A stretch of 64,000 nt of DNA from Vulcanimicrobiales bacterium (GTDB taxonomy: Bacteria > Vulcanimicrobiota > Vulcanimicrobiia > Vulcanimicrobiales > Vulcanimicrobiaceae), in assembly GCA_038231455.1 (NCBI GenBank), contig JBBRLI010000006.1, forward strand, positions 111,404-175,403, written 5' to 3'. A program made the translations under genes and the position numbers. A model generated the notes under the pieces. It made no database searches, had not been told where the DNA came from, and saw nothing but the letters and a program-made list of their open reading frames with translations. Numbering within the stretch: the stretch's first letter is position 1; every line of letters begins with the position of its first letter. This document shows, piece after piece, positions 2,478 to 63,813 of the stretch.

Positions 2478-2877
2478 CCAGACGCCATTCGTGTTGTTCG
2501 TTTGTCGGCACAACACCGGCCGTTCGCAGATGGCGGAAGCGTATCTGCGGCACTTCGCGGGCGATAAAATCGAAGTCGCCTCAGCGGGAACGATCGCCGC
2601 CGCGGTCCCCGATCCGCGCGTTGTCGCGATCATGGCGGAGGATGGTATCGATATCAGTGCTGCGCGGCCAAAACTGCTCGACGCGGAGAAAGCCAAGATC
2701 GCCGATCGCATTATAACGATGGGTTGCGATGTTGAAGGCGTGCCTCGGATCGATGCAGATTGGGGTCTTGCCGATCCCAAAGGTCAGCCGCCTGAGGCCG
2801 TTCGCGAGATTCGGAACACGATCAAAGAAAAAGCCCGCGAGTTAGCGGCCGCCCTACTTGGAACGAACAAAGCTTAG
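2458..2877 (+). CDS. arsC: LMW-PTP-fold arsenate reductase
   Basis: VLFVCRHNTGRSQMAEA P-loop (CX5R), SAGT, DWGLADPKGQ; GTG start at 2458 after GAAGGAG. Confidence 0.85.
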   Translation: MNLSAANQTPFVLFVCRHNTGRSQMAEAYLRHFAGDKIEVASAGTIAAAVPDPRVVAIMAEDGIDISAARPKLLDAEKAKIADRIITMGCDVEGVPRIDADWGLADPKGQPPEAVREIRNTIKEKARELAAALLGTNKA

Positions 2878-2927
2878 ACTCGGTGGGGTCTGCCCCGACG
2901 CCGACTTGCAAGGACCGTGCATCACCT

Positions 2928-5900
2928 TTAAACGGTGATCGCCATTCCGCGATAAATACGCGAACGATAGCGACTGTCGTCGGCGGCGGGTAGTGGGCCG
3001 GATTCAAGGACGAGCGCGCGCGCGAAACGGTCGAGTTCTTCTTGTTGCTCGCTCGTATTACGCGGTTCTTCGCTTTGCACACGGCGCGTGACGTTGATCT
3101 GATTGACCGGCACTTCATGCACGAGACGTTCGTTCTCGACGGCAATCGTTGCGGTAAGGGCGTGCAGTGTGGTCTTGATGAAATTCGCCAGCGCAAATTC
3201 CACCGGGTTGCCGCCAAATGGAACGTCGGGGGAGACGAAGACCAGTCGCACGTCTTCGAGCAGTGACACCGTTCGTGCGACGCGAAAGTGATTGGTGATA
3301 TTCTCCTCGATCATCGCTTCGAATCCGGGTCCATCGAGAGCGTGATCGCCTTCGAAAAGCGCGTTCGGTAAGAGACCGAGCGGCATGGAGACGACAGCCG
3401 CCGGGTTCGGATATTCGCTCAGTGCGCGATCGAGCCCGGTCTCGAGGTCCGCGCCGATGACGATGTCGACGATGCGTTCCGCGATCGTCGATCCGACGCG
3501 TTGACGGACGTGTTTTACTGCTTGTTGCGTGCACGTGATTAGCACCACGCGATCGACGCCGCACTCTTCGACATACGCACGGGCCGCGCGCACCATGTGT
3601 TCGATCGGATGCTCGCCGACGATCCAGACGTTTCGCCCGCGCAGTTGCGCCACGCGCTCGTCCTTCGAGCGACCGAAGAGTTCTCGCTCGGTAATCGAGC
3701 GTTCTTGGCGCAGACCGCCCGAGGGTTGAAACGTTTCGCCCGAGACGGCGCGATCGGCAAGGAAGTACACCGTCGCAAGCGCGACTTCGAGTTCGCTCGG
3801 CATATGCTGCAAATGCAGCATTTTTAGCACCCCCGACCGCACTTTTTCCGCTTCGCGTTCGACCTCGCGCGGTGCAAAGAATGGTTCGGCGGGACGTTGT
3901 GCGATGCCGCATTTGACGTCATCTGAGAGACGATGGCTGCGCTGCAAACGCTCGCAAAGCTTTCGTGAGATATCTTCGTCCATCAGCGCCGTAGCGAATG
4001 ATGAACCTTCGCTTGCGGCCGCCCCCTTCACGATTGCATCGCAGAGATTGCGCAGCGTCGCGGGCGTTGAAGGATCAGCGATGATCTCCGCAATGTCGTT
4101 CCGCATTGCCGCCTGCAGGAACAGATGCGTTTCGCCGCCCGTGCGCACGTGCGCGATCGCCGCGGCGTAGATTGCATTCAGTCTCTTTGCGGCTAAAATC
4201 AGCTTGCCGCGGCGTTCGAAGAGACCCGGTCCGCCGCCCGTGCCGGCGAGACGGTCGCCCGCAACCGGTCCTGGGGCGATTGCGTTGATTTGAATTTCGG
4301 GACCGACGAATTGCGCGAGCGTCTCGACGATTGCGCGCTGCCCGGCTTTGGATACGGCATAGTCGCTTCGATTGGGATAGGCGACGGCAACGTATTTCTC
4401 TCCGCCGAAGTACGAGCTAACGTTAAGAATGTAGCCGCTGCCGCGCTTTTTCATCTCTGGAACGACGCGCGCCATCAGCGCAAAGTTCGAGATCAGGTTG
4501 GCTTTGAGCGTTCGGCGCCAGCTCTCGAGCGGCATATCGACGACCATTTGTTCGGCCCCCGCTATCCCGGCATTGTTAATGAGATAGTCGATCGAACCGA
4601 ACCGGGAAAGACCACGATCGATCGCAAGGGCGAGCGTCGCGTCGTCTGCGACATCGACGCCGTCGAGTGTTTCGATTCGCGCCGCGGCGTCGTCGTAGCC
4701 GATGGCCGTGAGTTCGCTAACGATATTCTTGCGCATCGTTGCGAGTTGATCCGCACGACGCGCAGCGATGATCACCCGCGCGCCCGCGATTGCCAGCAGT
4801 CGAGCGATCTGGCCGCCAATACCGGCGGAACCTCCCGTAATGAAGGCGACTTTGCCGCGATGGAGGCCGATGAGGCTCTCGCTTGCGCCAAACGTAGCGC
4901 GGGTCGCGCCCGTGCCTTCGCCAAGCGAATCGGGTAAGTACAGATTCACGGGCTTCGTGCGCCGGTTGGTGTAAAGAAGTTTCGCTGTCCACGCCGCTGC
5001 GAACCGCAGCCCTTCGTCTTCGGTATTCGTCCAGCGCACGATTTGATTTGACCAGTCGGCAAAGGGCCGTTTACCAGCCGACGCGTCGAGTTCCGATTCG
5101 TCACGCCAAACGCGCACGAGCTGTTCTACCGCGGCGCGCCAGATATCGCCATAGACGTTGCCGCGACCGTCGTCTCCGTTCCCGAGAAAAACGACGCGCG
5201 GGTTAGCGCCGATGCGGGCGGTACTCCAATACCGTCCGAGTTCGCGCGCAATCACGATCGCGCCCACGATCTCGCCGTCCAAGAACGCGTCGACGTCCTC
5301 ATCGCTGGCGTCGGCCAGCGGCTTGGTGAAATGCTTGGGACCGAACGCGGGCAAAATGACGGCGCCGTGCACGGCACCCGATGTGCGCCGCAACATCGTT
5401 GCGACCGCGTCGGGATCGCGCCGGTCGAGTGCGAGCGTGCGAATGTTGCGATCGAGTTCCAAGTCTCCGAGCTTCGAAGATGCGCTCGTGAGCGCCGCGT
5501 CGTTTGGGACGCTAAGCAAGACCGTAGCTCCGCATTCCGCGTGCGCTCGTGCAACGGCGATGCCGGCTTCGACATCTTCGCCTGAGACGACAAGCACGGT
5601 ACGTCCCGACGCATCGACGATGCGTAGACCGGGACGTGCGGTAAACGTGCTGCGACTTTCCTGTCGCACAAGCATGCCGTGCGTGATCTCGAAGTTGTGT
5701 CCGCTGATCGCGCCCGAATCGTCACTGCCGAGAAAAACCGTCGTGGATGCCACATCGCCAATCGTCGGAAACGGTGTGGCAGGAATGGCGTCCGTGCCGC
5801 CGTTCCGTGAGAGCGTCATCATATCGGTGATCTCGTTTGCCGTGGTGCCGGAAGGCGCGCTGCGGAGGGCGTCCATCGAAGCAAATACGCTATGGATGCG

Positions 5901-52540: not shown

Positions 52541-52981
52541 ATGAAACGCATTCTGCTCATCGGCCTAATCGGCGGCGTGCTCATCGCCGTGCTGAGGCTG
52601 ACCGAATATCGATTTCTTGTGGTCGAGAATTCTCTCGAGATCTACGGCGGTCTTGTCGCGCTCATCTTCGCGGGGCTGGGCATTTGGTTTGGAATCAAGT
52701 TGAGTCGCCCCGGAAGCGTGATCGTCAAAGAGATCGAAGTGCCCGTCGCGCAGGCGTTCGTTCGCAATGCCGAGCGGCTCGAGGAACTCGGCCTCACGCC
52801 AAGGGAGCTTGAGACTTTGGAACTCCTGGCACAAGGTCTGAGCAACCGCGAAATTGCCGAACGACTCGTCGTTAGTGAAAACACGGTCAAGACGCACATC
52901 AGCCGCGTGCTCGGAAAGCTTGGCGTTAGCCGGCGCATCCAAGCGGTGCAGATGGGCAGAGAAGCGGGACTCTTACGCTAG
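52541..52981 (+). CDS. Membrane-anchored LuxR-type HTH regulator
   Basis: Two N-terminal TM segments, then LTPRELETLELLAQGLSNREIAERLVVSENTVKTH. Confidence 0.9.
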   Translation: MKRILLIGLIGGVLIAVLRLTEYRFLVVENSLEIYGGLVALIFAGLGIWFGIKLSRPGSVIVKEIEVPVAQAFVRNAERLEELGLTPRELETLELLAQGLSNREIAERLVVSENTVKTHISRVLGKLGVSRRIQAVQMGREAGLLR

Positions 52982-53640: not shown

Positions 53641-54357
53641 ATGCCTACGTTGACATCGGTTATGGCGGCCTTGAAAGCTAAGGGCGCCGAGAAGACTCGC
53701 GCGATCTACATCCGCCATGGCGCGCCGGCGGAGCGAACGCTTGGGGTGAGTAACGCGGACATGAAGCTCATCGCGAAGACAATCAAGAACGAACCGTCGC
53801 TTGGCCTCGCTCTCTACGACACCGGCACATTCGAGGCAATGTACGTGGCCGGGTTGATTTGCAATGGCGCGACGTTCTCCAAAAGCCAGGTTGTCGCGTG
53901 GGCAGAATCCGCTGCGGGGATGCCGATGATCTACGATTACACGGTCCCCTGGATCGCACTCGAACACCCCGAGCGTCTGGCCTTTGCCGCCGCCTGGACG
54001 AAGTCAAAAAAAGAACACATCGCAGCAGCCGGGTGGCACGTGTACTCGGGGATCCTCGCAACCGAACCCGACGAGCAAATCGACCTGGTCTTGTTCCGAT
54101 CGCTCTTGCAGGGCGTTCCTTTGAACATTAACAGCGCTCCGAACCGCGCGCGGGCGGCGATGACCAGCTTCGTCATTTCCGCCGGAACGTACGTGTCTGC
54201 CTTGCGCCCCGAAGCCACGGCAATCGCAAAGGCGCTCGGCACGGTCGCAGTCGATGTCGGCCAAACGGCCTGCGAAATCCCCGTCGCATCGGAGCGGATC
54301 GCGAAGGCGCTCGCAAGCGGCCGGGCCGGCAAAAAGCGGAAGACGATGCGGTGTTGA
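53641..54357 (+). CDS. DNA alkylation repair protein (AlkD-like HEAT repeat)
   Basis: LKAKG.EKTRAIY.RHG, GVSNADMK, LYDTG.FEAMY, VDVGQTACEIP, GKKRKTMRC. Confidence 0.8.
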   Translation: MPTLTSVMAALKAKGAEKTRAIYIRHGAPAERTLGVSNADMKLIAKTIKNEPSLGLALYDTGTFEAMYVAGLICNGATFSKSQVVAWAESAAGMPMIYDYTVPWIALEHPERLAFAAAWTKSKKEHIAAAGWHVYSGILATEPDEQIDLVLFRSLLQGVPLNINSAPNRARAAMTSFVISAGTYVSALRPEATAIAKALGTVAVDVGQTACEIPVASERIAKALASGRAGKKRKTMRC

Positions 54358-55124
54358 ACGCTCGGAGCGTGCCGCTCACCGACCCCGACCTTGCCGCAAT
54401 TCGCGCGAACCCCCACTACGAGGATGCCTACCGCGGCGAACCGCTTGTCTCGGTCTGTATCTATACATACAACCGCGCGCAGATGCTCTGCGAACGGTCG
54501 CTGCCAAGCGTCCTCGCTCAGACCTACACCAACTGGGAGGCGATCGTGGTCGGCGACGGCTGCGACGATGACACCGCCGAACGAATCGCGGGTCTCGGTG
54601 ACGATCGCATCCTTTTTTACAACCGCGCGACGAACGGCCCGTACCCGGCCGATCCGCACGCGCGCTCCCTCGTCGCGGGCACGTATGCGGCAAACGAAGC
54701 CTTCTCCCGGTCGCGCGGTCGGTGGATCGCGATCAACAACGACGACGACGACTGGTCGCCCGATCATCTCTCCGCTCTCATTAAAGAGGCGAAGCGCACG
54801 CATGCAGAGCTCGTCTACGGTCGCATGCGCGTGGCTATTCACGGGACGGGTGAGGAGAGCGCGTTTGGCAGTTGGCCGCCGCAGCTCGGCGAGTTCGCCT
54901 ATCAAGCCGCGATCTATCACGGCGACCTGCGCGAATTCCAGGTCGATATCGACGCGCATACGATCGGCGAGCCCGGAGATTGGAACCTGGCGCGCCGGAT
55001 GCTCGCGGCGGGAGTCCGATTTTCGTTCTTGCCGCAGGCCGTCGGAACGTACCACCTTGCTGCACAGCACATCCACCAGGATTGGTGGAGCGAGCACGCG
55101 CGTCGCCAAAAAACCCCAACATAA
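54351..55124 (+). CDS. Glycosyltransferase family 2
   Basis: PLVSVCIYTYNR, SVLAQTYTNWEAIVVGDG, NNDDDDW (DxD), DWNL. Confidence 0.9.
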   Translation: MLNARSVPLTDPDLAAIRANPHYEDAYRGEPLVSVCIYTYNRAQMLCERSLPSVLAQTYTNWEAIVVGDGCDDDTAERIAGLGDDRILFYNRATNGPYPADPHARSLVAGTYAANEAFSRSRGRWIAINNDDDDWSPDHLSALIKEAKRTHAELVYGRMRVAIHGTGEESAFGSWPPQLGEFAYQAAIYHGDLREFQVDIDAHTIGEPGDWNLARRMLAAGVRFSFLPQAVGTYHLAAQHIHQDWWSEHARRQKTPT

Positions 55125-55240
55125 TGTGGCAGACGGCCATTTATCTGCCTACCGGAAAAAGCAATCTCCGTAAAGCGAACTTTGCACGATTCTCATCCAA
55201 ACCAAGTGAGCCAGGGTATAAAGTACGTCCGAACGAATAA

Positions 55241-55321
55241 TTGAGGCTAATCACGGGCGGGGAGTATCCTGCATCCGTGGCGCACTTGCGCTTGACACTC
55301 GCAGGGTAAGTCACGTATCTT
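55241..55321 (+). promoter_or_regulatory. Tandem sigma70-like promoters upstream of the first surface lipoprotein
   Basis: TTGAGG-N18-TATCCT (55241-55270) and TTGACA-N18-TATCTT (55292-55321). Confidence 0.5.
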
Positions 55322-55463
55322 TTGGAAGTTCACCGTGGAAAGCCGTAAATTCGGCTTTTATAGTGACGACATCGCGAGGGTGGTGCCTTATGAAGCCCCT
55401 TTCCGAGACGTCGAAGTTCTCATCTTGTAGTTCTCCTGATCGTCCGTCTATTGAAAGGATCAA

Positions 55464-57047
55464 ATGACGTCACGTATTCTCTCGCTCGCCGCGGTTATCG
55501 GTCTGCTTGGAGCAGCCGGTTGCAGCGGTGGCGGCACAGGTACGGCAGCTAACGGCCTCGCGCCGAAAGCCCCCGTTACCACTGGCTCCACCAAAGGCAC
55601 CTCATCGCTTACCGCGAGCTTCCTGATCCCGATTTCGGGCGTGCAAGCATCCGCGATGTCCGCAGGACGTAAAGCGTCCTACCTCTCGCCCGGTACGAAC
55701 GGCATCACCGTTCTCATGGGCAACGGCACGCTTGTCGTCGGTTCAACCGGCCTAAGCGGTACAGCACAGCTCACCGGTTCGGTTAACGAAACCGGTGCCG
55801 CTGCTCAGAGTGCGAACGTTTCGTTCCTCTCGGCTTCGAACTCGACGACACCCGTTGTCGGACAGACGCTGAAGATTCAGCATTTGAACAACGCCGGTAA
55901 TACCCCATCGGGCACGTCCTCGGCTGTTCTCACGATTACCGCGATTCTCAGCCCCACCATCGTTCAAGGCACCTTTGCCGCGAGCCCCGGTGCAGCCGCT
56001 AACGCGGCTGGCGGCGGCCAGCCGGCCGGTTATAACTTCCTTGCTGGAGACTTGATCACGTTCACCGCTACCGGTGCTTCGTCCAACGGTCAGCAGTTCA
56101 TCATCGGCAACCAGAATACGGCCGCGCCGCTCACGCCGACCCCGGTTGTGAACGCTACGATTCCGGCTTCGGTTTATCCGGCGACCGCAACGTCAACCTA
56201 CTCGTATAACTTCGCCCCGTCGACCGTGGCCGGTTACTACGTGTTCAACTTGACGCTCACTGGTCTGTTGCCGTCGTCAGCCCTGACGCTTGGCGTCGTG
56301 ACGAACGACACGAACCACAACAACTTCGTCCTCTCGGAAGCACAGCAGACCTACACGACCGCTACTTCCGGCGACACCGCCGCGTATACCGCCTTCACGC
56401 TGAAGCCGGTTATCAATGGTGCATTCGTGCCCGCCCCGACCTTTGTCAAGCCGGTCCAGCTTGGCAATCCGGCAGCAAACCCCGTCGCCGTCCTTGGTAC
56501 GTATGAGACGACCGTCTTCGCGGTCGACGAACTCGGCTACATCATCCCGAACATCAACGCTGAAGCCGCGGGCATCGACAACGAAGCCGCAGCTAACCCG
56601 ATGGTGACGGTCGCCGCGACGACCGCAACCGACCTGCTCTTCAGAAACTACACGGTTCCTGGTACGGCTACCGGTCCGTCGCTCACGATCGCTCCGACAA
56701 CTGGCGCAACTGCTGCTGATGCAGTGGCAGGCCAAGTCACATTCGGCAAGACCGCGTCTGACTACGTGAACGTCACCGGCTTCTACTACACCAACCTCCT
56801 CAACTCGGCTCCGAACAGCCCGACACTCGGCGGCGCAGCAAACCCCGCTGGCACGCCGGTCAACATTGTTTGTAATGCAAACAAGGCCGCTGTCGCATGG
56901 GGCGTCACCATCCAATCGGCCGCTCCGGCAGCTTCGGTTGTTGGCTATGTGCTCACACCGGGTACGAACTACCCGTCGAACACCGCCTTCACCACGGCTC
57001 TTCCGGCACTCAACTGCTCACCGGGTATCGGCGCAGTCATCAACTAG
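55464..57047 (+). CDS. Ala/Thr/Gly-rich surface lipoprotein, paralog A
   Basis: Lipobox AAGC-SGGG, GAAAGG RBS, beta-strand-rich and charge-poor, two late Cys, ends NCSPGIGAVIN. Confidence 0.85.
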   Translation: MTSRILSLAAVIGLLGAAGCSGGGTGTAANGLAPKAPVTTGSTKGTSSLTASFLIPISGVQASAMSAGRKASYLSPGTNGITVLMGNGTLVVGSTGLSGTAQLTGSVNETGAAAQSANVSFLSASNSTTPVVGQTLKIQHLNNAGNTPSGTSSAVLTITAILSPTIVQGTFAASPGAAANAAGGGQPAGYNFLAGDLITFTATGASSNGQQFIIGNQNTAAPLTPTPVVNATIPASVYPATATSTYSYNFAPSTVAGYYVFNLTLTGLLPSSALTLGVVTNDTNHNNFVLSEAQQTYTTATSGDTAAYTAFTLKPVINGAFVPAPTFVKPVQLGNPAANPVAVLGTYETTVFAVDELGYIIPNINAEAAGIDNEAAANPMVTVAATTATDLLFRNYTVPGTATGPSLTIAPTTGATAADAVAGQVTFGKTASDYVNVTGFYYTNLLNSAPNSPTLGGAANPAGTPVNIVCNANKAAVAWGVTIQSAAPAASVVGYVLTPGTNYPSNTAFTTALPALNCSPGIGAVIN

Positions 57048-57065
57048 TCTCGGTCATCGGACCAC

Positions 57066-57101
57066 AGAAGAGGCCCCGTTTCGACGGGGTCTCTTTTTTT
57101 T
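57066..57101 (+). terminator. Rho-independent terminator after lipoprotein A
   Basis: AGAAGAGGCCCCGT-TTCG-ACGGGGTCTC followed by a T-run. Confidence 0.9.
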
Positions 57102-57120
57102 GTGTCCGAATCGCTCGAAC

Positions 57121-58287
57121 GTGGTATCCAACATCTTGCGCGATCTCGCACGCCCGTTCGCACGCGCGCACGCTCCGCAACCGACCGGTCCGATCGTCGT
57201 CCTCGATGATTTTTTTCCGAATCTCTACAGCGGCTTTCGCGTCGCCGAATACAACGCATATCTCGAGCGCTTTCCGCACCTCGTCGTGCGCTCATCGAGT
57301 CCGGATTTTTCGACTGCACACGCGATCTACGCGCGGCGGTATCCGCACTTTGCGTCGCGGGTTTTGCCGTTCGATCCCGCGGCTCTCGATCACGCGCGGC
57401 TCGCCTATTTCATGTTTCTCCACAATGCGCACGCGTTTTTGCCGTTCCTAACCCAAGCGCAACTGCCGTTTGTCTTCACCTTGAATCCCGGCGGCAGCTT
57501 TGGCTTGAACGACGCCAAGAGCGATTCCATGCTCGATCCCGTGATCGCATCGCCGCTTTTCCGTCATGTCATCGTGACGCAAAACATCACCCGCACGTAC
57601 CTGCGCGACCGCGGTGTACCGTCGGAAAAAATCACGCTGATCTACGGCGGCGTGATGAACGCACGGTATGTCGATGCGCCCGCTCCATCGCGCCCGTACT
57701 ATCCACAAAAGCCGCTGTTCGACATCGCTTTCATCGCCCACAAGTACATGCCGAACGGCGCCAACAAAGGCTTCCCGGAATTCTGTGCGCTCGCATCGCG
57801 CTTTGTGGACGATCGGACGATCGCATGGCACGTGGTCGGACACGATTTCGACGAGGGCGACTGGCCAACGGAACTCGCGCGACCGCAAGCGTTTACGTTT
57901 CACGGCTTACTCGAATCGACGACGACGCTGTACGACTTTCTCCTCGGCATCGATATCGTGGTCTCGCCGCAGCAACCGTTTTTGCTCTATCCGGGCAACT
58001 TTGATTCCCTGCCGACAATGGGGATCGCCGAGGCATCGCTGCAGGGCGCCGCGATGATTTGCAGCGACGTCCTCAAAATGAACGACCGGTATCGCGAAGG
58101 AGCGCAGATCGTCATTGCTCCGCCTGAAGTCGATGCACTCTTCCGTGCTGTCGCCGATCTCAAGGCAAATCCCAAACGCCTGCAGTCTCTTGCCAAGGCC
58201 GGCCAGCGGCGCAGCCGCGAGCTATTTTCATCCACGGCGCAACTCCGCGAACGCGTTGCACTACTCGCGCGATTCGCAGCGACGTAA
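57121..58287 (+). CDS. GT-B fold (GT4-like) glycosyltransferase
   Basis: DDFFP...GFRVAEYN, FIAHKY...NKG, DIVVSP, PTMGIAEASLQGAAMICSD; GTG 57121 is the first start after the terminator. Confidence 0.8.
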   Translation: MVSNILRDLARPFARAHAPQPTGPIVVLDDFFPNLYSGFRVAEYNAYLERFPHLVVRSSSPDFSTAHAIYARRYPHFASRVLPFDPAALDHARLAYFMFLHNAHAFLPFLTQAQLPFVFTLNPGGSFGLNDAKSDSMLDPVIASPLFRHVIVTQNITRTYLRDRGVPSEKITLIYGGVMNARYVDAPAPSRPYYPQKPLFDIAFIAHKYMPNGANKGFPEFCALASRFVDDRTIAWHVVGHDFDEGDWPTELARPQAFTFHGLLESTTTLYDFLLGIDIVVSPQQPFLLYPGNFDSLPTMGIAEASLQGAAMICSDVLKMNDRYREGAQIVIAPPEVDALFRAVADLKANPKRLQSLAKAGQRRSRELFSSTAQLRERVALLARFAAT

Positions 58288-58529
58288 TCGACTGATCGCT
58301 TCACAAGAGAACCGAGCCCTCGCACGCGATAGAACGTCAAGTTTTTGTCATCGCTTGTATCGATTTGCATGGACACGGTGGCACGTCGCACAAAAGAACA
58401 GCAAGTTCGATTCGCCGAGTGAAGCTCTTTGCTCGGCTGCGAGTTGAGATCGAGAACATCGAGCGTACGGTACGTCTAGTAATGTGCCGCTACGCTCATG
58501 TTCGTGCGTAGCTTTTCGTGAAAGGTTTT

Positions 58530-60149
58530 ATGAAGTCAATTCTATCGCTCACCGCAGTCGCGGCGTTGCTTGCGGCCACGGGCTGCAGCGGCGGCGGTGC
58601 CGGAACGGCATCGTCCGGCCTTGCCCCCGGCGTCCCCGTCGCGCACATCGCAGCGAACGGCACGGCATCCATTTCTGTCAGCTTCCAAATTCCGGTGTCG
58701 TCATCGCAAGCAGCGGCACTTTCCGCCGGCCGCAGCGCGAAGTATCTTTCGCCCGGAACGAACGGTATCAGCATCCTCTTGGGTGATGGCAGTACCGTCA
58801 CGGGGTCTGCCGGCCTCAGCGGCACAGCGCAGCTCACCGGGTCGGTCAACGAAACGGGCGCAGCGGCACAATCGGCTAACGTGTCATTCTTGTCGGCCTC
58901 GAACTCGACGACGCCAGTCGTCGGCCAGACGCTCCAACTGACACACTTGAATAGTGCGGGCAACACGCCCTCGGGAACGAACTCGGCGATTTTCACAATT
59001 ACGGCGATCCTGAGCCCGACCATCGTGCAAGGCACGTTCGCGGCAAGTGCCGGTGCCGCGGGCAATGCTGCCGGCGGCGGCCAGCCCGCGGGTTACAACT
59101 TCCTCGCTGGCGATCTCATCACGTTCACGGCAACAGGCCCGAGCACGACTGGTCAGCAGTTCATCGTCGGCAATCAAAACACGGCCGCACCGCTGACACC
59201 GACGCCGCTCGTCAATGCACCGATCCCGTCGACGATTTTCGGCGCGACGTCAAGCTCGACGATTTCGTATAGCTTCACGCCAACGGTAGCGGTCGGCGTT
59301 AGCGGCAATTTCGCTTATGGCTACTACACGTTCAACGTGACAATCGACAAGATCACGGCCGGCAAGGCGTACACGCTTGGCGTGGTCACGAACGATACGG
59401 CACACAACAACTTTGTGCTCTCGGAAGCGCAGCAAGTGATTTCAACTCCGGCCGCCGGTGGATCGTCGGTCGCCGCGTTCACTCTTCGACCCGTCGTCGC
59501 CGGCGTTTTCGTAGCGGCGCCGGGGTTTGTCGTTCCGCGCCAGCTCGGCAATGCGGCCAATCCGCCCGCCGCCGCACTCGGAACGTACGAAACGACGGTC
59601 TTTGCAACGGATGAACTCGGTTATGTCATCCCGTCGATCGGTGGATCGAATCCGGACAACGCCCCGGCCGCTGCGCCGATGATTACGATTGCGCCGACCA
59701 CATCGGCGACCGCGCTCTCGTTCAAGAAATACCCGACCCAGCCGTCGTTTATCACCGGTAGTCCCGGACTGCCATACACGTTTGCTCCGCCGAATACGGT
59801 TGCCATCGCACCGACCGCCGTTGCAAACGTCTTCACGCTCGGCCTCGGTGGCTCGGATTTTGCAAACATCGTGGGCGTACTCTTCGCCGACATCATCGGG
59901 TCCACACCGAACTCCATCACGCAGGCATCGAATCTCGCGGGTCAATTCGCCGGTACCGGCCTCAACGTCGTCTGCGGCGTGAACAATGCCGCCGTCACGT
60001 GGACCGCGACCATCCAGTCCGCAACACCCGTCGGGTCCGTCGTCGGTTATACGCTGACGCCGGGTACGAACTACCCTTCGAGCACCGCCTATGCGATTAA
60101 CCTGCCTGCAGTGAATTGCAGCCCGGGCATTGGCGGCGTCATCAACTAA
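58530..60149 (+). CDS. Ala/Thr/Gly-rich surface lipoprotein, paralog B
   Basis: Lipobox ATGC-SGGG, GAAAGG RBS, long blocks identical to paralog A, ends NCSPGIGGVIN. Confidence 0.85.
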   Translation: MKSILSLTAVAALLAATGCSGGGAGTASSGLAPGVPVAHIAANGTASISVSFQIPVSSSQAAALSAGRSAKYLSPGTNGISILLGDGSTVTGSAGLSGTAQLTGSVNETGAAAQSANVSFLSASNSTTPVVGQTLQLTHLNSAGNTPSGTNSAIFTITAILSPTIVQGTFAASAGAAGNAAGGGQPAGYNFLAGDLITFTATGPSTTGQQFIVGNQNTAAPLTPTPLVNAPIPSTIFGATSSSTISYSFTPTVAVGVSGNFAYGYYTFNVTIDKITAGKAYTLGVVTNDTAHNNFVLSEAQQVISTPAAGGSSVAAFTLRPVVAGVFVAAPGFVVPRQLGNAANPPAAALGTYETTVFATDELGYVIPSIGGSNPDNAPAAAPMITIAPTTSATALSFKKYPTQPSFITGSPGLPYTFAPPNTVAIAPTAVANVFTLGLGGSDFANIVGVLFADIIGSTPNSITQASNLAGQFAGTGLNVVCGVNNAAVTWTATIQSATPVGSVVGYTLTPGTNYPSSTAYAINLPAVNCSPGIGGVIN

Positions 60150-60163
60150 CCGCCACGTATCCC

Positions 60164-60198
60164 AAAAAAAGATCCCGTTTCGGCGGGGTCTTTTTTTT
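60164..60198. terminator. Bidirectional rho-independent terminator
   Basis: A7-GATCCCGT-TTCG-GCGGGGTC-T8 between convergent genes; resembles the terminator after paralog A. Confidence 0.88.
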
Positions 60199-60200
60199 CT

Positions 60201-61325
60201 CTAGCGTCGCAAGACGCTGAGTGTCCGCGCGGCAATTTTAACGACGCGTTCGACATCGATGTCGTCGAGATCGGGAGCCATCGGTAATCCGACAAGTGAT
60301 GGCGCGATCCGCGCGGTGATGTCAAGCGAATCCGCCTCCGCATTTCGCCAGTACGGTTCTGTTTTCACGCCGGTGCCGTACCACAGGCGCGACTCGATCC
60401 GCTCGGCACCGAGGGCCGCACTCAGCTCAACGGCAAGGGTCGCGTTCCCCGCATCGACGATGGCATAATTTGAAGCCACATCGGGGGCAACATAAAGCCG
60501 TTGGCTGATGCCGTGCGCGTTCGCTGCATTGCGGTATGTATCGGCAACGGCGCGGTTAGCCACGCACGTCGAATCCCATGCGTCGAGTGCCGCAAGACCC
60601 ACCGCCGCGTGATACTCGCTCATCTTCCCATTCGTCCCGGCGCTGGTGCTCTCGCGCTTGTAGAGAAATCCGAAGTTCAGCGCTTGCGCGATTCGTTTAA
60701 GCCCCGCGGCATCCGACCACACGACGGCACCGCCTTCGCCGCTGCTAAACGCTTTGGTCGATTGAAAACTCAGCGTGACCGGGACGCTGCCCGTGCAGAT
60801 TTCCGGATGCGCGATCAACGATTCAAATGCCGCTGCTGCGTCGATGACGACGGGGATCTTCGTGCGTTCTGAAAACGCGGACCATTCCGCTTGCGCGATT
60901 GCGCGGCCATAAGGCGATACGGGAATGACGATCCCGGCCCGCGCGAGTGAGGGATGGTTGTCCAGCGTGCCGCTCGCAAGCGACCATGTCGTCGCATCGA
61001 CATCGAGCAAATACGGCCGGTACCCGCAGGCTTCGACGGCCGACGCCGTCGCGACGAACGTGTATGCCGGAAGCAGCGCGAGTGGTCGTTCCGCCGTCGC
61101 GCGGCCTGCCGTCGCCAGGATTGCTGCTTCGATTGCGACCGTTCCGTTTGCCGCGCTCATCACGGGCGTGCCGATACGTTCGCCAAGTCGCGCTTCGAGT
61201 TCTTGCACGAGCTCGCCGCGATTCGTATACCAGCGGTTGGCATCCATGCGATCGAGATACGGCACGATCTCAGCGGTGCGCGGCAAGAGCGCCCGATAGA
61301 CTGGAATGGGAATGTGCTCGCTCAT
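60201..61325 (-). CDS. DegT/DnrJ/EryC1/StrS family PLP-dependent sugar aminotransferase
   Basis: WYTNRG, ANGTVA, PAYTFVAT, VIDAAAA, SFQSTKAFSSGEGG (PLP Lys), NGKMSEYHAAVGL. Confidence 0.92.
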   Translation of the reverse strand: MSEHIPIPVYRALLPRTAEIVPYLDRMDANRWYTNRGELVQELEARLGERIGTPVMSAANGTVAIEAAILATAGRATAERPLALLPAYTFVATASAVEACGYRPYLLDVDATTWSLASGTLDNHPSLARAGIVIPVSPYGRAIAQAEWSAFSERTKIPVVIDAAAAFESLIAHPEICTGSVPVTLSFQSTKAFSSGEGGAVVWSDAAGLKRIAQALNFGFLYKRESTSAGTNGKMSEYHAAVGLAALDAWDSTCVANRAVADTYRNAANAHGISQRLYVAPDVASNYAIVDAGNATLAVELSAALGAERIESRLWYGTGVKTEPYWRNAEADSLDITARIAPSLVGLPMAPDLDDIDVERVVKIAARTLSVLRR

Positions 61326-61993
61326 GTCGTACGGCGCTTTGCTAGCGTGCGATAATCCGTCGCGGGGTTTCCGGCGAGCGTCTCACCCGGCTGCACCGAT
61401 CGCAGCACGACGGCGCCGGCGGCAATCGTTGCACCGGCGCCGATCGTCATGATGTCGTCGGACTCGTTGGCAATGCGCGCGCCGACGCCGATGAACACAC
61501 CCTCACCGATATCAACGCGGCCGCCAATGGCCGCCATCGGGCACAGCGTCGTAAAGTCGCCGATCGTGCAACCGGCGTCGACCGAGCAGAGCGGCATGAC
61601 GTGCACGTGGTTGCCGATCACCGTGCCCGCGCCGACCGACGAATACGCAAGAATCATCGTGTCGGTGCCGACGACGACGTCGCGCGCTACCGGTCCCGCG
61701 GCGCGATAAAACGACGAAAATCGGCCGCCCGCCGCGTTGATACGTTCGACGAGTTTGCGACGGCCCACGGGATCTCCGATGGTTACAAAAATCGGCGTGT
61801 CGCGATACCGCGCCACCCACGTCTCGAACGAGATCACCGGTGCTGCGCCGATCGCTAATCCTGTATCCCCACGCCCGTCATCGATGTATGCAACGACCGT
61901 TGCGAGCGGTTCGGGTACCCACGATTCAAACACATCGGCGGCGGCGCTGGCATAGCCTGAAGCACCGTAGATCACAAGCGCTGGAGCGCTCAC
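61322..61993 (-). CDS. NeuD/PglD-like sugar acetyltransferase (left-handed beta-helix)
   Basis: LVIYGASG Rossmann-like N-domain, hexapeptide repeats, IGAGATIAAGAVV, AGNPA. Confidence 0.85.
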   Translation of the reverse strand: MSAPALVIYGASGYASAAADVFESWVPEPLATVVAYIDDGRGDTGLAIGAAPVISFETWVARYRDTPIFVTIGDPVGRRKLVERINAAGGRFSSFYRAAGPVARDVVVGTDTMILAYSSVGAGTVIGNHVHVMPLCSVDAGCTIGDFTTLCPMAAIGGRVDIGEGVFIGVGARIANESDDIMTIGAGATIAAGAVVLRSVQPGETLAGNPATDYRTLAKRRTT

Positions 61994-62043
61994 CGCGACG
62001 ACCGCGCAGTAGACGGTCGCGACGGGGCCGAATCGACCCGCTG

Positions 62044-62721
62044 ATGGCGAGCGTTCCGCGACCGATCGTGCTCCACTACGGACCGGGACGAAACGCCGCG
62101 TTCGACGATTTTATCGATCGCGGCGAGTGGACGGTCATCGCTTGTGTAGCGGACGCCGATCTCGATTGCGCAGGCGAAATGCCGCCCGTCTCGTTCGCCG
62201 AGTGGCACGAGCACTTGCGCGCGGTTCCAAGCGCCTTCGTTGCGCTCGATCCGCGCGAGCGGCACGCACAGGTCGAGCGCGTTCACAAAGCCGGCGGAAC
62301 GATCGCGCACGTGGATGTGATCGGCGATGCGATCTCCCGCAAAACGAGCTTCGGTGAGGCGACGCTCGTCGGTCGCGGCGCGCTCTACGTGGGCAGTCTG
62401 ACGACGGTGGGCCGGCACACGATCGTCATGACGCCGGCGAGTCTTGGCCATGATGTCGTGATTGGAAATTTCGTCACGATCTTCCCGTCGGCGGCGATCT
62501 CCGGGTACGTCATCATCGAAGATGACGTGACGATCGGCCTCGGCGCCGTCATTGCGAACGGACAGCCCGATCGACCGCTGCGTATTGGCGCCGGGGCGCG
62601 CATCGCAAGCGGGGCGGTGGTGATGCGTTCCGTTCGACCCGGCCTTTTGGTCGCGGGCAACCCGGCCCGTCCGGTGACCGTGCTAGAATTGGGTCATGAG
62701 CGCATCATCGCCCGCGAGTGA
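62044..62721 (+). CDS. Second NeuD/PglD-like acetyltransferase, divergently oriented
   Basis: SLGHDVVIG, hexapeptide repeats, IGAGARIASGAVV, VAGNPAR. Confidence 0.82.
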   Translation: MASVPRPIVLHYGPGRNAAFDDFIDRGEWTVIACVADADLDCAGEMPPVSFAEWHEHLRAVPSAFVALDPRERHAQVERVHKAGGTIAHVDVIGDAISRKTSFGEATLVGRGALYVGSLTTVGRHTIVMTPASLGHDVVIGNFVTIFPSAAISGYVIIEDDVTIGLGAVIANGQPDRPLRIGAGARIASGAVVMRSVRPGLLVAGNPARPVTVLELGHERIIARE

Positions 62722-63352
62722 AGAACTCACCGCATTCATCGCCGCGGCAAAGGCGAGCGGCATCGCCGACTCGTTCATCGTCGCGCTGTTGCGGAAGAAC
62801 GGCTGGTCCGAGCAACGCGTGTACAAGGCGTTCTCGACCTACTATACGGCACACATCGGGGTCGCGATTCCGGCAAAAAGCGGGCAGGGTGAAAACGCGC
62901 GCGATGCGTTTTTCTACCTGTTGAATTTTGTTACGCTGGGGTTCTGGACGACGGCCCTCGGCTCGATTTTTTATACGTATATCGCGCACGTGATTCCCGA
63001 TGCAACCGGGATCGGGAACGGCTATCCCTCGCTGCGCGATCAGATCGCGTGGCAGTTAGCCACGGTGCTCGTCACTTTTCCAATCTTCGCGTTCGTGCAT
63101 CGACTCATCGCACAGCAACTCGCACAGCGCACCGACGGGTACGATTCGGGTGTTCGTAAGTGGCTCACGTACATCGCACTCGTCATCGCCGCGCTCGTCG
63201 TTGTTCTCGATGCGATTTGGTTCCTCGATAGTCTGTTCCGCGGACAGTTGACGCTGCGCTTCATCTTGGATTCGCTGGTATTGCTCGTACTCGGCGGTGG
63301 CGTGTTCGCGTACTATCTCGCAACGATCGACGGACCGCGCCGCGAATCATGA
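62696..63352 (+). CDS. DUF5671-like membrane protein
   Basis: LRKNGWS, ARDAFFYLLNFVTL, LRDQIAW..A...V.FP, RKWLTYIAL, FRGQLTLRF; extended -10 TGCTAGAAT ends 6 nt before the ATG. Confidence 0.75.
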   Translation: MSASSPASEELTAFIAAAKASGIADSFIVALLRKNGWSEQRVYKAFSTYYTAHIGVAIPAKSGQGENARDAFFYLLNFVTLGFWTTALGSIFYTYIAHVIPDATGIGNGYPSLRDQIAWQLATVLVTFPIFAFVHRLIAQQLAQRTDGYDSGVRKWLTYIALVIAALVVVLDAIWFLDSLFRGQLTLRFILDSLVLLVLGGGVFAYYLATIDGPRRES

Positions 63353-63813
63353 GCACCGGTGTAACGCGGGCGTTTACGATCGCCGTACTCGTGCTCGTCG
63401 CACTGGGCGTGGCACTCGCCCTCTCGATCGTCGGTACGCCGACACAGGCGCATCAAGCGGCGCTGGATCAACGTCGTATAGACGACCTCAATCGGATCCG
63501 GATACGTTTGAGCGACATGTACACGAGCGATCGGAAGATACCCGACCGCCTTCATGCGCGCGCGAGCGAAGCGCTCGACTTGGTCGACCCGGAGTCTGGT
63601 GCACGCTATCCGTACCGCCGCGAAAGCGCGACGCGCTACCGCCTATGCGCGGTCTTTGCGCAAGAGTCCGAAGTCAAGGATCCGCAAGCGCTACCGTGGT
63701 CGGAATCGTGGTCGCACGGCCGGGGACTTACGTGCTTTGCACTCGATGCATCAAAGCAGGCGGAGCGGCCAAGACAAATCCTCAAAATCCACGCGTCGGT
63801 AAACGGGGTCTAA
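63349..63813 (+). CDS. Membrane-anchored hypothetical protein (pilin-like helix plus small domain)
   Basis: N-terminal TM, GTP...LDQRRIDDL, DPESGARYPY, YRLCAVF, HGRGLTCF; ATGA overlap with the upstream gene. Confidence 0.7.
   Translation: MSTGVTRAFTIAVLVLVALGVALALSIVGTPTQAHQAALDQRRIDDLNRIRIRLSDMYTSDRKIPDRLHARASEALDLVDPESGARYPYRRESATRYRLCAVFAQESEVKDPQALPWSESWSHGRGLTCFALDASKQAERPRQILKIHASVNGV

Follow-up and report, generated by a model that had tools for sequence, protein, structure and literature searches.

Two lipoproteins interleaved with a putative amino-sugar cassette in an uncultured Vulcanimicrobiales bacterium: candidates for decorated surface proteins

Gene content of the locus

We analysed a 64,000-nucleotide stretch of a Vulcanimicrobiales bacterium (assembly GCA_038231455.1, contig JBBRLI010000006.1, positions 111,404 to 175,403 of the forward strand; hereafter the window, from whose first letter coordinates are counted), in which seven genes over 54351..62721 bring together two lipoproteins, A and B, and a set of sugar-modifying enzymes. 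In order, these genes encode a GT2-family glycosyltransferase, lipoprotein A, a GT4-type glycosyltransferase, lipoprotein B, a DegT-family aminotransferase and two hexapeptide acetyltransferases (AcT1 and AcT2), a series that had been proposed in a first-pass annotation of the same DNA and is borne out by domain matches. As the pairing with sugar genes is found again in related uncultured bacteria, A and B are probably sugar-decorated surface proteins, one of them probably very abundant. The explanation that we tentatively favour, at just short of an even chance, is that an abundant envelope lipoprotein is the O-linked acceptor of the glycan made by the neighbouring cassette.

Lipoprotein A (527 aa; 55464-57047, + strand) comprises a signal peptide, a lipobox with Cys20, a linker and a predicted all-beta body. 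Lipoprotein B (539 aa from its ATG; 58530-60149, +) is 85% identical to a metagenome protein (P0004) and, as the annotation had claimed, a paralogue of A, with 63% identity over 525 aa (E 6e-177). Upstream of A, the GT2-family enzyme (257 aa; 54351-55124, +) matches PF00535 at 7.7e-18 and no NCBIfam equivalog at cut-off; its 60%-identical orthologue in a metagenome locus, L006, also lies beside a lipoprotein homologue. Between the lipoproteins lies the GT4-type (GT-B) glycosyltransferase (388 aa; 57121-58287, +), which is 80% identical to the gene at the same position in metagenome locus L007 and 64% identical to a gene in a Vulcanimicrobiota metagenome-assembled genome (MAG), G255. Its GTG start at 57121 was set from the L007 homologue, the listed open reading frame (ORF) starting at 56866. 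Its own Pfam matches are weak and below cut-off (24.8, 21.9 and 18.0 bits; Glyco_trans_1_2, 2.3e-5), and a PDB sequence search with this protein gave nothing meaningful (best E 0.057).

Downstream of B, the DegT/DnrJ/EryC1-family sugar aminotransferase (374 aa; 60201-61325, -; PF01041, 5.4e-51) overlaps by 4 nt with AcT1 (223 aa; 61322-61993, -), a PglD/NeuD/VioB-type hexapeptide N-acetyltransferase that matches PglD_N (PF17836, 1.6e-7) and Hexapep (4.4e-13) and scores 152.6 bits against TIGR03570, just below the cut-off of 160.8. AcT2, the second hexapeptide acetyltransferase (225 aa from the ATG at 62044; 62044-62721, +; Hexapep, 3.2e-8), reaches 99 bits against the same model, likewise below cut-off, and has orthologues in L006 (53%) and in metagenome locus L005 (48%). 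The aminotransferase and both acetyltransferases had been described as convergent with the lipoproteins; this holds for DegT and AcT1, which converge on lipoprotein B, and fails for AcT2, which lies on the + strand and diverges from AcT1.

Signals and composition of the lipoproteins

That A and B are lipoproteins, as first proposed, agrees with signal peptides ending in AAGC and ATGC and followed by SGGG (...LLGAAG-C-SGGG in A, ...LLAATG-C-SGGG in B), which we take to fit the PROSITE lipobox rule, and with retention of the cysteine in relatives: Cys20 is present in all 29 rows of a 36-sequence family alignment that have an N-terminus. The genome encodes BamA/Omp85 and, in tandem genes at C7:62341-63185, signal peptidase II (LspA; PF01252 twice above cut-off). 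A and B are predicted to be exported by the Sec pathway and lipidated on the conserved cysteine. Across the family, the 25 residues that follow it consist of 30% Gly, 16% Thr, 15% Ser, 12% Ala and 11% Pro, and in A this Gly/Thr/Ser/Ala/Pro linker reaches approximately residue 45. Being of low complexity and predicted to be disordered, the post-Cys linker is a possible acceptor region for O-glycans. Two further cysteines, Cys470 and Cys518, each occur in 34 of 36 rows and are absent only together (from P0034 and P0038), which fits a disulfide in an exported protein.

Residue percentages agree with the Thr/Ser/Ala/Asn-rich and charge-poor composition claimed for both proteins. A contains 16.3% Ala, 14.0% Thr, 10.8% Gly, 8.2% Ser and 7.8% Asn, D+E+K+R amount to 4.7% in A and 3.9% in B, and in a crude set of 2534 ORFs of the genome B is the second and A the fifth least charged. 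This low-charge Ala/Thr/Gly/Ser style is a genome-wide habit of lipoproteins and not unique to A and B. Lipoproteins in which a Gly/Ser-rich stretch comes after the Cys account for many of the least-charged ORFs (e.g. C4:13715-15991, C8:139176-141645, C22:24549-25523 and C11:92946-93791).

Linkage to the sugar cassette in other loci

Synteny in relatives had been proposed as a check on the locus; linkage, though not gene order, proved to be conserved. A metagenome scan yielded five loci with a relative of the lipoproteins (35-52% identity, 35-41% over full length), and in all five a cassette gene lies directly downstream: DegT in L004 (73% identical to that of the window); AcT2-like (48%) and AcT1-like (56%) genes, then a carbamoyltransferase, in L005; AcT2-like (53%), AcT1-like (62%), DegT (60%) and GT2 (60%) genes in L006; the GT4-type gene in L007; and an FkbM methyltransferase together with DegT (70%) in L008. 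The linkage persists although L006 and the window arrange and orient these genes differently. Lipoproteins only 35-41% identical, combined with a changed gene order, make simple recent common descent an unlikely reason for the shared neighbourhood. Sequence conservation is much higher in the cassette enzymes than in the lipoprotein, a contrast to be expected if the latter is exposed and evolves fast.

In L006, the genes beyond GT2 encode a TauD-like dioxygenase, an aldo-keto reductase, an Asp/Arg-hydroxylase-like protein and a carbamoyltransferase-GDSL fusion (1085 aa). These additions (L006:5543-10990), and that at L005:3813-4331, extend the cassette beyond what the window holds and suggest further tailoring of the sugar.

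Expression signals

The first-pass annotation had also given each lipoprotein a strong terminator of its own, and folding energies concur (-33.4 kcal/mol, z -5.3, after A; -19 kcal/mol, z -3.5, after B). The intrinsic terminator of A (57066-57101, +) has a 14-bp stem, a UUCG loop and T8, whereas the hairpin after B (60164-60198), which also carries a UUCG loop, folds at -19.0 kcal/mol on the + strand and -17.1 on the - strand; flanked by A7 and T8, it is a bidirectional terminator common to lipoprotein B and the convergent DegT gene. The two terminators are homologous to each other, and the same GC-rich hairpin stands behind each of the seven members of the family for which a 3' flank is available, the five outside the window lying at L004:1506-1548, L005:2262-2304, L006:2264-2306, L007:234-278 and L008:212-254. 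Across the seven, the UUCG loop is invariant, compensatory changes occur in 5 of 13 stem pairs, and the closing pair in L004 is C-G. In its own 3.7-Mb genome the hairpin core is found at only two sites, after A and after B, and a search of positions 54000-63500 against Rfam gave no match at E≤1. Conservation with compensatory changes indicates that the hairpin travelled, and was selected, with the gene family; a role in efficient termination or mRNA stability fits these observations. The GT4-type gene starts 19 nt past the T-run of the terminator of A, an arrangement also present in L007, which suggests low-level read-through expression coupled to A.

Codon choice was compared with 17 ribosomal-protein operon genes (on C40) as reference and 2534 ORFs as background. 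By this measure, A lies at the 99.7th percentile (99.6th after correction for amino-acid composition), and its excess of ribosomal-type codons ranks 11th of 2534, among GroEL, EF-Tu, EF-G and ATP synthase beta, with a value per codon of 0.110 where the ribosomal genes average 0.121. B lies at the 76th-82nd percentile and the cassette enzymes range from the 5th to the 78th. Taken with the conserved and stable 3' hairpin, the ribosomal-like codons of A would fit high abundance of this protein.

The upstream regions of the two lipoproteins are long, as had been noted (339 and 242 nt). They cannot be aligned with each other, blastn and tblastx of both against the rest of the genome gave no matches, and no gene relics were seen in them. 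A sigma-70-like match 5' of A (TTGACA-18-TATCTT; 55292-55321, +) agrees with 10 of 12 consensus positions, although three promoter-like matches in that region against 2.7 expected from shuffles make this weak evidence for the promoter of A.

Sequons, glycan chemistry and type of linkage

In the first-pass annotation, the case for glycosylation rested on many N-x-S/T sequons, and this argument does not hold. Sequon counts in Asn/Ser/Thr-rich proteins are uninformative without a composition control, and here they equal the expectation from composition: A has 10 against 8.6±2.5 in shuffles of the same composition (33% of shuffles reach 10), and B has 7 against 7.2±2.3 (60% reach 7). Conservation is poor as well, given that only NCS517 (20 of 35) and NST126 (11 of 26) of the 10 sequons of A are kept in more than one-third of the other rows, and neither A nor B contains a D/E-x-N-x-S/T site. 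A search of the 93.67%-complete genome for STT3/PglB (PF02516) gave no match, the control search being positive in four archaea. With no sequon enrichment or conservation and no STT3/PglB, N-glycosylation is without support.

As to the sugar itself, the DegT protein keeps a ...STK...GEGG stretch, which presumably marks the PLP (pyridoxal phosphate) lysine of the family. Of the NCBIfam models, DesI (TIGR04427) comes closest, with 163 bits where 650 are required, and the nearest PDB sequences are 3ju7 (6.8e-37), DesI (2po3, 1.1e-30) and WbpE (8e-22). Both a 4-amino-4,6-dideoxy and a 3-amino sugar are possible products. The aminotransferase and acetyltransferases of the locus carry family-level domains only and reach no equivalog model, and no PglF-type dehydratase is found in the locus; RmlB (dTDP-glucose 4,6-dehydratase) is encoded elsewhere in the genome (436 bits against a curated cut-off of 365). 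Also elsewhere are three Wzy_C proteins (C7:19121, C3:114295 and C4:177105; none in the locus) and two PglC-type initiating transferases (Bac_transf), each approximately 1-5 kb from a Wzy_C-domain gene on the same contig. The Wzy_C proteins are candidates for either an O-oligosaccharyltransferase or an O-antigen ligase, two functions inseparable by sequence alone.

Predicted fold

Structure prediction followed by Foldseek, one of the checks that had been proposed, gave an all-beta model with multi-Ig surface proteins as top matches, every one of them at background level. AlphaFold2 (AF2) modelling of A improved from a mean predicted local distance difference test score (pLDDT) of 59.2 with 20 sequences to 78.6 with 36, with a predicted template-modelling score (pTM) of 0.67. 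In this model, residues 1-43 are disordered (pLDDT <50), strand 47-56 joins strands 228-300 in a sandwich resembling a V-type immunoglobulin (Ig) domain (~44-56 + 228-300), a six-stranded small beta-barrel is inserted at ~98-204, and a C-terminal beta-sandwich (~316-521) holds the Cys470/Cys518 pair. The best Foldseek matches were the multi-Ig surface proteins SbsB (4aq1), antigen I/II, Saf pilus, Esp and Bap; the first of these, an S-layer protein, had an E value of 6.7e-4 and a probability of 0.69, with a template-modelling (TM) score of 0.15 that is background level. VIA-align likewise gave background-level Z scores of at most 7.4 (phage tail barrels, F1-ATPase crown domains, IgV domains), with 5.8 for a domain of SbsC (87 residues, root-mean-square deviation (rmsd) 2.9) and 5.3 for the putative adhesin BT2657 (4qdg; 112 residues, rmsd 3.8). 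With both models, neither program placed a type V pilin, chaperone-usher pilin or S-layer chain above background, in searches that barely covered the C-terminal half as a domain of its own. Within these limits, the modelled fold can be described as generically beta-sandwich surface-protein-like, with no identifiable relative.

Some features bear on the possibility that A and B are polymer subunits, either of a two-component lipid-anchored S-layer or of a type V pilus-like filament in which cleavage at Arg69 would remove the lipidated N-terminal strand, leaving a groove to be filled by the C-terminal strand of the next subunit. Of 30 rows, 29 keep Arg69, which lies in a loop modelled with low confidence directly after the first strand (47-56) of the Ig-like domain. 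The C-terminus is conserved too: the penultimate residue is I, V or L in 35 of 36 rows, and 30 of the 36 end in Asn (A ends ...CxPGIGxVIN). A lipoprotein precursor, the presence of SbsB at the top and the Saf pilus among the top five in Foldseek, and the co-retention of two paralogues, reminiscent of two-subunit layers such as TfsA/TfsB, point the same way. Against these stand the background level of all structural matches (BT2657 included), the failure of family searches to detect any pilin, usher, SLH, CWB2, RsaA-type or other S-layer family, and the lack of linked tip, anchor or protease genes; in the available text of the paper on the cultured relative, moreover, no S-layer or such pili turned up (PMC9758169). 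We consider polymer subunits quite unlikely, a reading that overlaps in part with that of an O-linked acceptor. Most specific, and highly unlikely, is a lipoprotein-born polymerising surface subunit outside Bacteroidota, in which cleavage at Arg69 would free the body from the lipidated strand and the C-terminal ...GxVIN strand would complete the next Ig-like domain, giving a glycosylated filament or coat of abundant A and variant B, decorated by the cassette. A complex prediction for A (44-527) and B (42-539) from 36-row alignments scored 0.00 against a mark of 0.32, without controls, and is not evidence either way.

Acceptor protein or polysaccharide partner

The proposal that the glycan of the cassette is O-linked to an abundant envelope lipoprotein draws on the linkage across loci, on the codon choice of A and on the 3' hairpin, and further on the one-way dependence set out below, the export signals, the possible acceptor linker, the sugar and transfer machinery elsewhere in the genome and the fold. 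The first three lines lend partial support to the first-pass annotation, whose surface glycoprotein with a dedicated glycan pathway is plausible, and the N-sequon part of that claim falls away. A number of observations weigh against an O-linked acceptor. Only three sample series gave rise to the five metagenome loci, which therefore do not represent as many independent lineages. Codon bias gives an indirect view of expression, and the signal holds for A and not for B. The fold matches are at background (TM 0.15, best Z 7.4). No oligosaccharyltransferase, flippase, initiating transferase or 4,6-dehydratase was found in the locus or in the 12-kb L006, and the GT4-type enzyme belongs to a broad polysaccharide-type subfamily. 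In G255, the cassette adjoins an unrelated 696-aa lipoprotein (hhalign probability 4%) and no family member. Distant relatives of approximately 400 aa had DegT or hexapeptide neighbours in none of 10 loci examined, absences that are soft, as the neighbourhood genes came from a crude ORF picker filtered on third-position G+C (GC3) that missed DegT in L040. Finally, a term search of the available text of the cultured-relative paper for 'S-layer' and 'surface layer' found no occurrence (PMC9758169).

Several of these points are accommodated if the cassette tailors a polysaccharide (the O-antigen of lipopolysaccharide (LPS), a capsule or an exopolysaccharide) and the lipoproteins are unglycosylated partners that bind, anchor or organise the glycan, or are co-residents of a variable 'surface island' under diversifying pressure from phages and grazers. 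We regard this as quite possible, though doubtful. Homologues of the GT4-type protein form 114 clusters, 40-47% identical in Proteobacteria; PF00534/PF13692 is found in most of the clusters, and the name GT4 appears in several NCBI records. Those at the Joint Genome Institute (JGI) are often labelled as LPS-transport ATP-binding proteins, and one is fused to Wzt_C; the label was probably carried over from fused or neighbouring Wzt genes. So widespread and polysaccharide-like a subfamily keeps the polysaccharide alternative alive. A homologue in G089 (35% identical; L066) was left out of the neighbourhood comparison, its 30% G+C locus having no ORF that passed the filter.

The distribution of DegT tells in the same direction. 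Homologues at 35-55% identity are common in Alphaproteobacteria and Acidobacteriota, and among 80 loci from named genomes with DegT homologues (35-65% identity) none has the lipoprotein family beside them, while 14 have one hexapeptide transferase, as O-antigen loci do. Among these loci, both acetyltransferases and the GT4-type gene together occur only in that of G255, where DegT is 65%, AcT1 61%, AcT2 53% and GT4 64% identical to the window genes. Among 60 relatives, DegT orthologues are found in two (G031 and the unpublished G020), without the lipoprotein. Dependence is one-way, which counts in favour of the O-linked acceptor: the cassette or DegT occurs without the lipoprotein, whereas the narrow lipoprotein clade, with cassette genes in 6 of 6 loci, was not seen without the cassette. 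An oligosaccharyltransferase missing from the locus and a different lipoprotein beside the cassette of G255 also suit a polysaccharide. So does the setting of the locus, whose flanks are unrelated to it (a DNA-alkylation-repair-like gene upstream, a DUF5671 gene downstream); a search of G001, a genome of the same genus, turned up neither of them, which points to a variable region.

What a polysaccharide explains less readily is that linkage survives rearrangement in all five metagenome loci and that the GT4-type gene follows a lipoprotein terminator at 19 nt in two divergent loci. The first-pass annotation had held out glycosyltransferases of LPS synthesis with no conserved linkage as the contrary outcome, and its second half is contradicted by the five linked loci. 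Two transferases without polymerase, flippase or export genes would also be a small polysaccharide locus, and the G255 neighbour is again an Ala/Thr/Ser-rich lipoprotein, with a lipobox and then a Gly-rich linker, such that a cassette with an exchangeable acceptor fits at least as well; the 696-aa protein may be a swapped acceptor. At that locus (L064, G255:C59), positions 893-2983 and 2674-4947 hold the 696-aa lipoprotein and a sedolisin/kumamolisin-type peptidase.

The proteins could, on the other hand, be ordinary periplasm-facing lipoproteins, a binding protein or an enzyme for example, with a position beside sugar genes that reflects shared descent and not function. Most diderm lipoproteins do face the periplasm, many other lipoproteins of this genome share the low-charge, Ala/Thr/Gly/Ser-rich composition, the linked loci stem from three sample series, and the distant relatives have unrelated neighbours. 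However, the linked lipoproteins reach no more than 35-41% identity and their neighbours are ordered differently, searches of Pfam and NCBIfam detected no catalytic or ligand-binding family, and ribosomal-level codons together with a gene-specific UUCG terminator would be odd for a minor periplasmic protein. On balance, we judge a periplasmic role unlikely. Taken as a whole, the region is best explained as an accessory locus for the envelope of an uncultured diderm of the Eremiobacterota/Vulcanimicrobiota.

Two regulators were seen along the way. A small membrane-anchored GerE protein is encoded at 52541-52981 of the window, 1.4 kb upstream of the locus, and a LuxR/GerE-type regulator lies beside the ~400-aa relatives in 3 of 10 loci (L030:10630-11364, L031:10565-11116 and L033:1510-2178).

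Family distribution and duplication history

The annotation had been unable to name the protein family, and nameless it stays: searches of Pfam, NCBIfam and PDB sequences gave no match for A, B or any of the 36 members. A word-indexed search through 5.8 billion proteins yielded 20, including the two of the window; every one is metagenomic, lacks a Pfam domain and has no name beyond 'hypothetical protein'. A profile search of 1.84 billion representative proteins found 44 at E≤1e-3 and 22 at E≤1e-30. When a single genome of each prokaryote species was scanned with the family alignment, 21 stretches fitted the pattern and no relatives emerged. A single-protein search of 60 relatives, the same-genus genome included, gave no real match, the sole hit being 40 aa in G014 at 9.4e-5, which is chance level. 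When a profile was run against 400 other genomes of the phylum (at most the best three candidates per genome, and including the unpublished G361), partial matches appeared in 62, namely 61 of 296 from the same family, 1 of 5 from a second family and none of the remaining 99. Most are lipoproteins of approximately 400 aa that have the N-terminal module or core in common with the family, and a distant third copy is present in the window's own genome (C15:991-2331). The 527-aa clade thus forms a small offshoot within a larger lipoprotein superfamily specific to this lineage. The top feature score in the ESM Atlas, 0.77, fell short of a useful level; among public sequencing runs, the sequence is listed for no RNA run and for a single DNA run, from a sediment metagenome that may be its source; and literature searches on Eremiobacterota/Vulcanimicrobiota surface proteins (S-layer; lipoprotein and glycosylation) found nothing relevant.

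The two paralogues diverged long ago. In a tree of 27 rows of at least 480 aa (9 shorter rows were left out), A groups with P0002 and P0007 (100/99) and B with P0004 in a clade of its own (100/100). Membership of separate, supported groups with metagenome proteins indicates that the split predates at least one speciation. Divergence is uneven along the protein: the inserted barrel, residues ~100-220 of A (55761-56123) against 58824-59189 of B, is 85-95% identical, whereas the variable face at residues 385-465 is only 35-47% identical. Identical residues of A and B use different codons approximately half the time throughout. Gene conversion between A and B was ruled out as the source of the conserved stretch, as different codons at identical residues are about as frequent in 100-220 (0.47-0.68) as elsewhere. 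High protein identity in the barrel, combined with synonymous divergence like that elsewhere, indicates purifying selection on one domain.

Comparison with known glycosylation and surface systems

The nearest parallels by gene content are the slg clusters of S-layer glycoproteins, such as SgsE of Geobacillus stearothermophilus and SpaA of Paenibacillus alvei, and the layer of Tannerella forsythia with its two paralogous subunits, TfsA and TfsB. There, as predicted here, the gene for an abundant, low-charge, Ala/Thr/Ser-rich all-beta protein with strong expression signals sits beside nucleotide-sugar and glycosyltransferase genes. In contrast to these systems, which use SLH domains, LPS binding or a C-terminal domain of the type IX secretion system (T9SS), the proteins described here would be held by an N-terminal lipid anchor; the window locus also has no WsaB/PglL-type oligosaccharyltransferase and shows no sequence or specific fold homology.

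Among the pgl systems, Campylobacter jejuni uses PglF/E/D with PglB, and Neisseria uses PglD/C/B, PglA and PglL/O. In systems of the Neisseria type, lipoproteins are frequent O-glycosylation targets, at Ala/Ser/Pro-rich low-complexity stretches. The window shares with pgl loci the combination of a DegT-family aminotransferase, a PglD/NeuD-type acetyltransferase and GT4 and GT2 enzymes. Unlike them, it has no dehydratase, flippase or initiating transferase in the locus, its genome lacks PglB/STT3 and A and B lack D/E-x-N-x-S/T, it has two acetyltransferases instead of one and an aminotransferase nearer to DesI/WbpE than to PglE, and its putative acceptor genes lie within the sugar locus.

In Actinobacteria, the glycosites of lipoproteins lie in a Thr/Ser-rich linker just past the lipidated Cys, the region that is the candidate here, and glycosylation follows export. 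There, mannose is transferred from polyprenol-phosphate-mannose by a GT-C enzyme in monoderm or mycolate envelopes, as opposed to a putative amino-sugar cassette in a diderm. Such O-glycosylation is reported to be Pmt-dependent (PMC5673659, PMC3460810).

Type V pilins (FimA/Mfa1 of Bacteroidota) resemble A and B in that they start as lipoprotein precursors, are built of beta-sandwiches and conserve both a basic residue beyond their first strand and the strand at the C-terminus. They differ in phylum and in that A and B have no FimA/Mfa Pfam match, no linked anchor, tip or usher-like genes and structural similarity at background only.

Proposed model and its meaning for the lineage

Assembled into a single scheme, these observations would run as follows. 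Both anciently duplicated lipoproteins would be exported by Sec and lipidated on the conserved Cys, after which a disordered linker of approximately 25 residues may hold the all-beta body, an Ig-like sandwich with an inserted barrel followed by a disulfide-stapled C-terminal sandwich, off the membrane. A would be made in very large amounts, with B a less expressed variant that presents a different C-terminal face. The DesI/WbpE-like aminotransferase and the two PglD/NeuD-type N-acyltransferases would produce an N-acylated amino-deoxy sugar nucleotide, which the GT2 and GT4 enzymes may build into a short glycan. Its assembly on a lipid carrier would fall to machinery encoded elsewhere, namely the PglC-type initiators and the Wzy_C ligase or O-oligosaccharyltransferase candidates, and the glycan would be attached through O- and not N-linkage, with the Thr/Ser-rich linker as the likeliest site. 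In the end, the outer envelope would carry a glycosylated coat protein. In this scheme, we infer the abundance of A, the identity of the sugar, the lipoprotein as acceptor, the O-linkage and the surface exposure.

Eremiobacterota/Vulcanimicrobiota are abundant in bogs, soils and cold deserts and have one cultured representative. In that sole cultured member, a typical outer membrane covered with LPS has been described (PMC9758169). For the phylum, the locus supplies a tangible candidate for a major protein of the envelope that may be a glycoprotein, together with a putative acceptor region and a five-enzyme sugar cassette. Even if that reading were refuted, the locus would still illustrate clearly how a gene for a surface protein is inherited together with genes that tailor a polysaccharide. 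If the reading is true, a lipid-anchored coat protein decorated with amino sugars would join the known ways in which diderms dress their surface, and it would provide a marker antigen and a likely phage-receptor candidate for the lineage.

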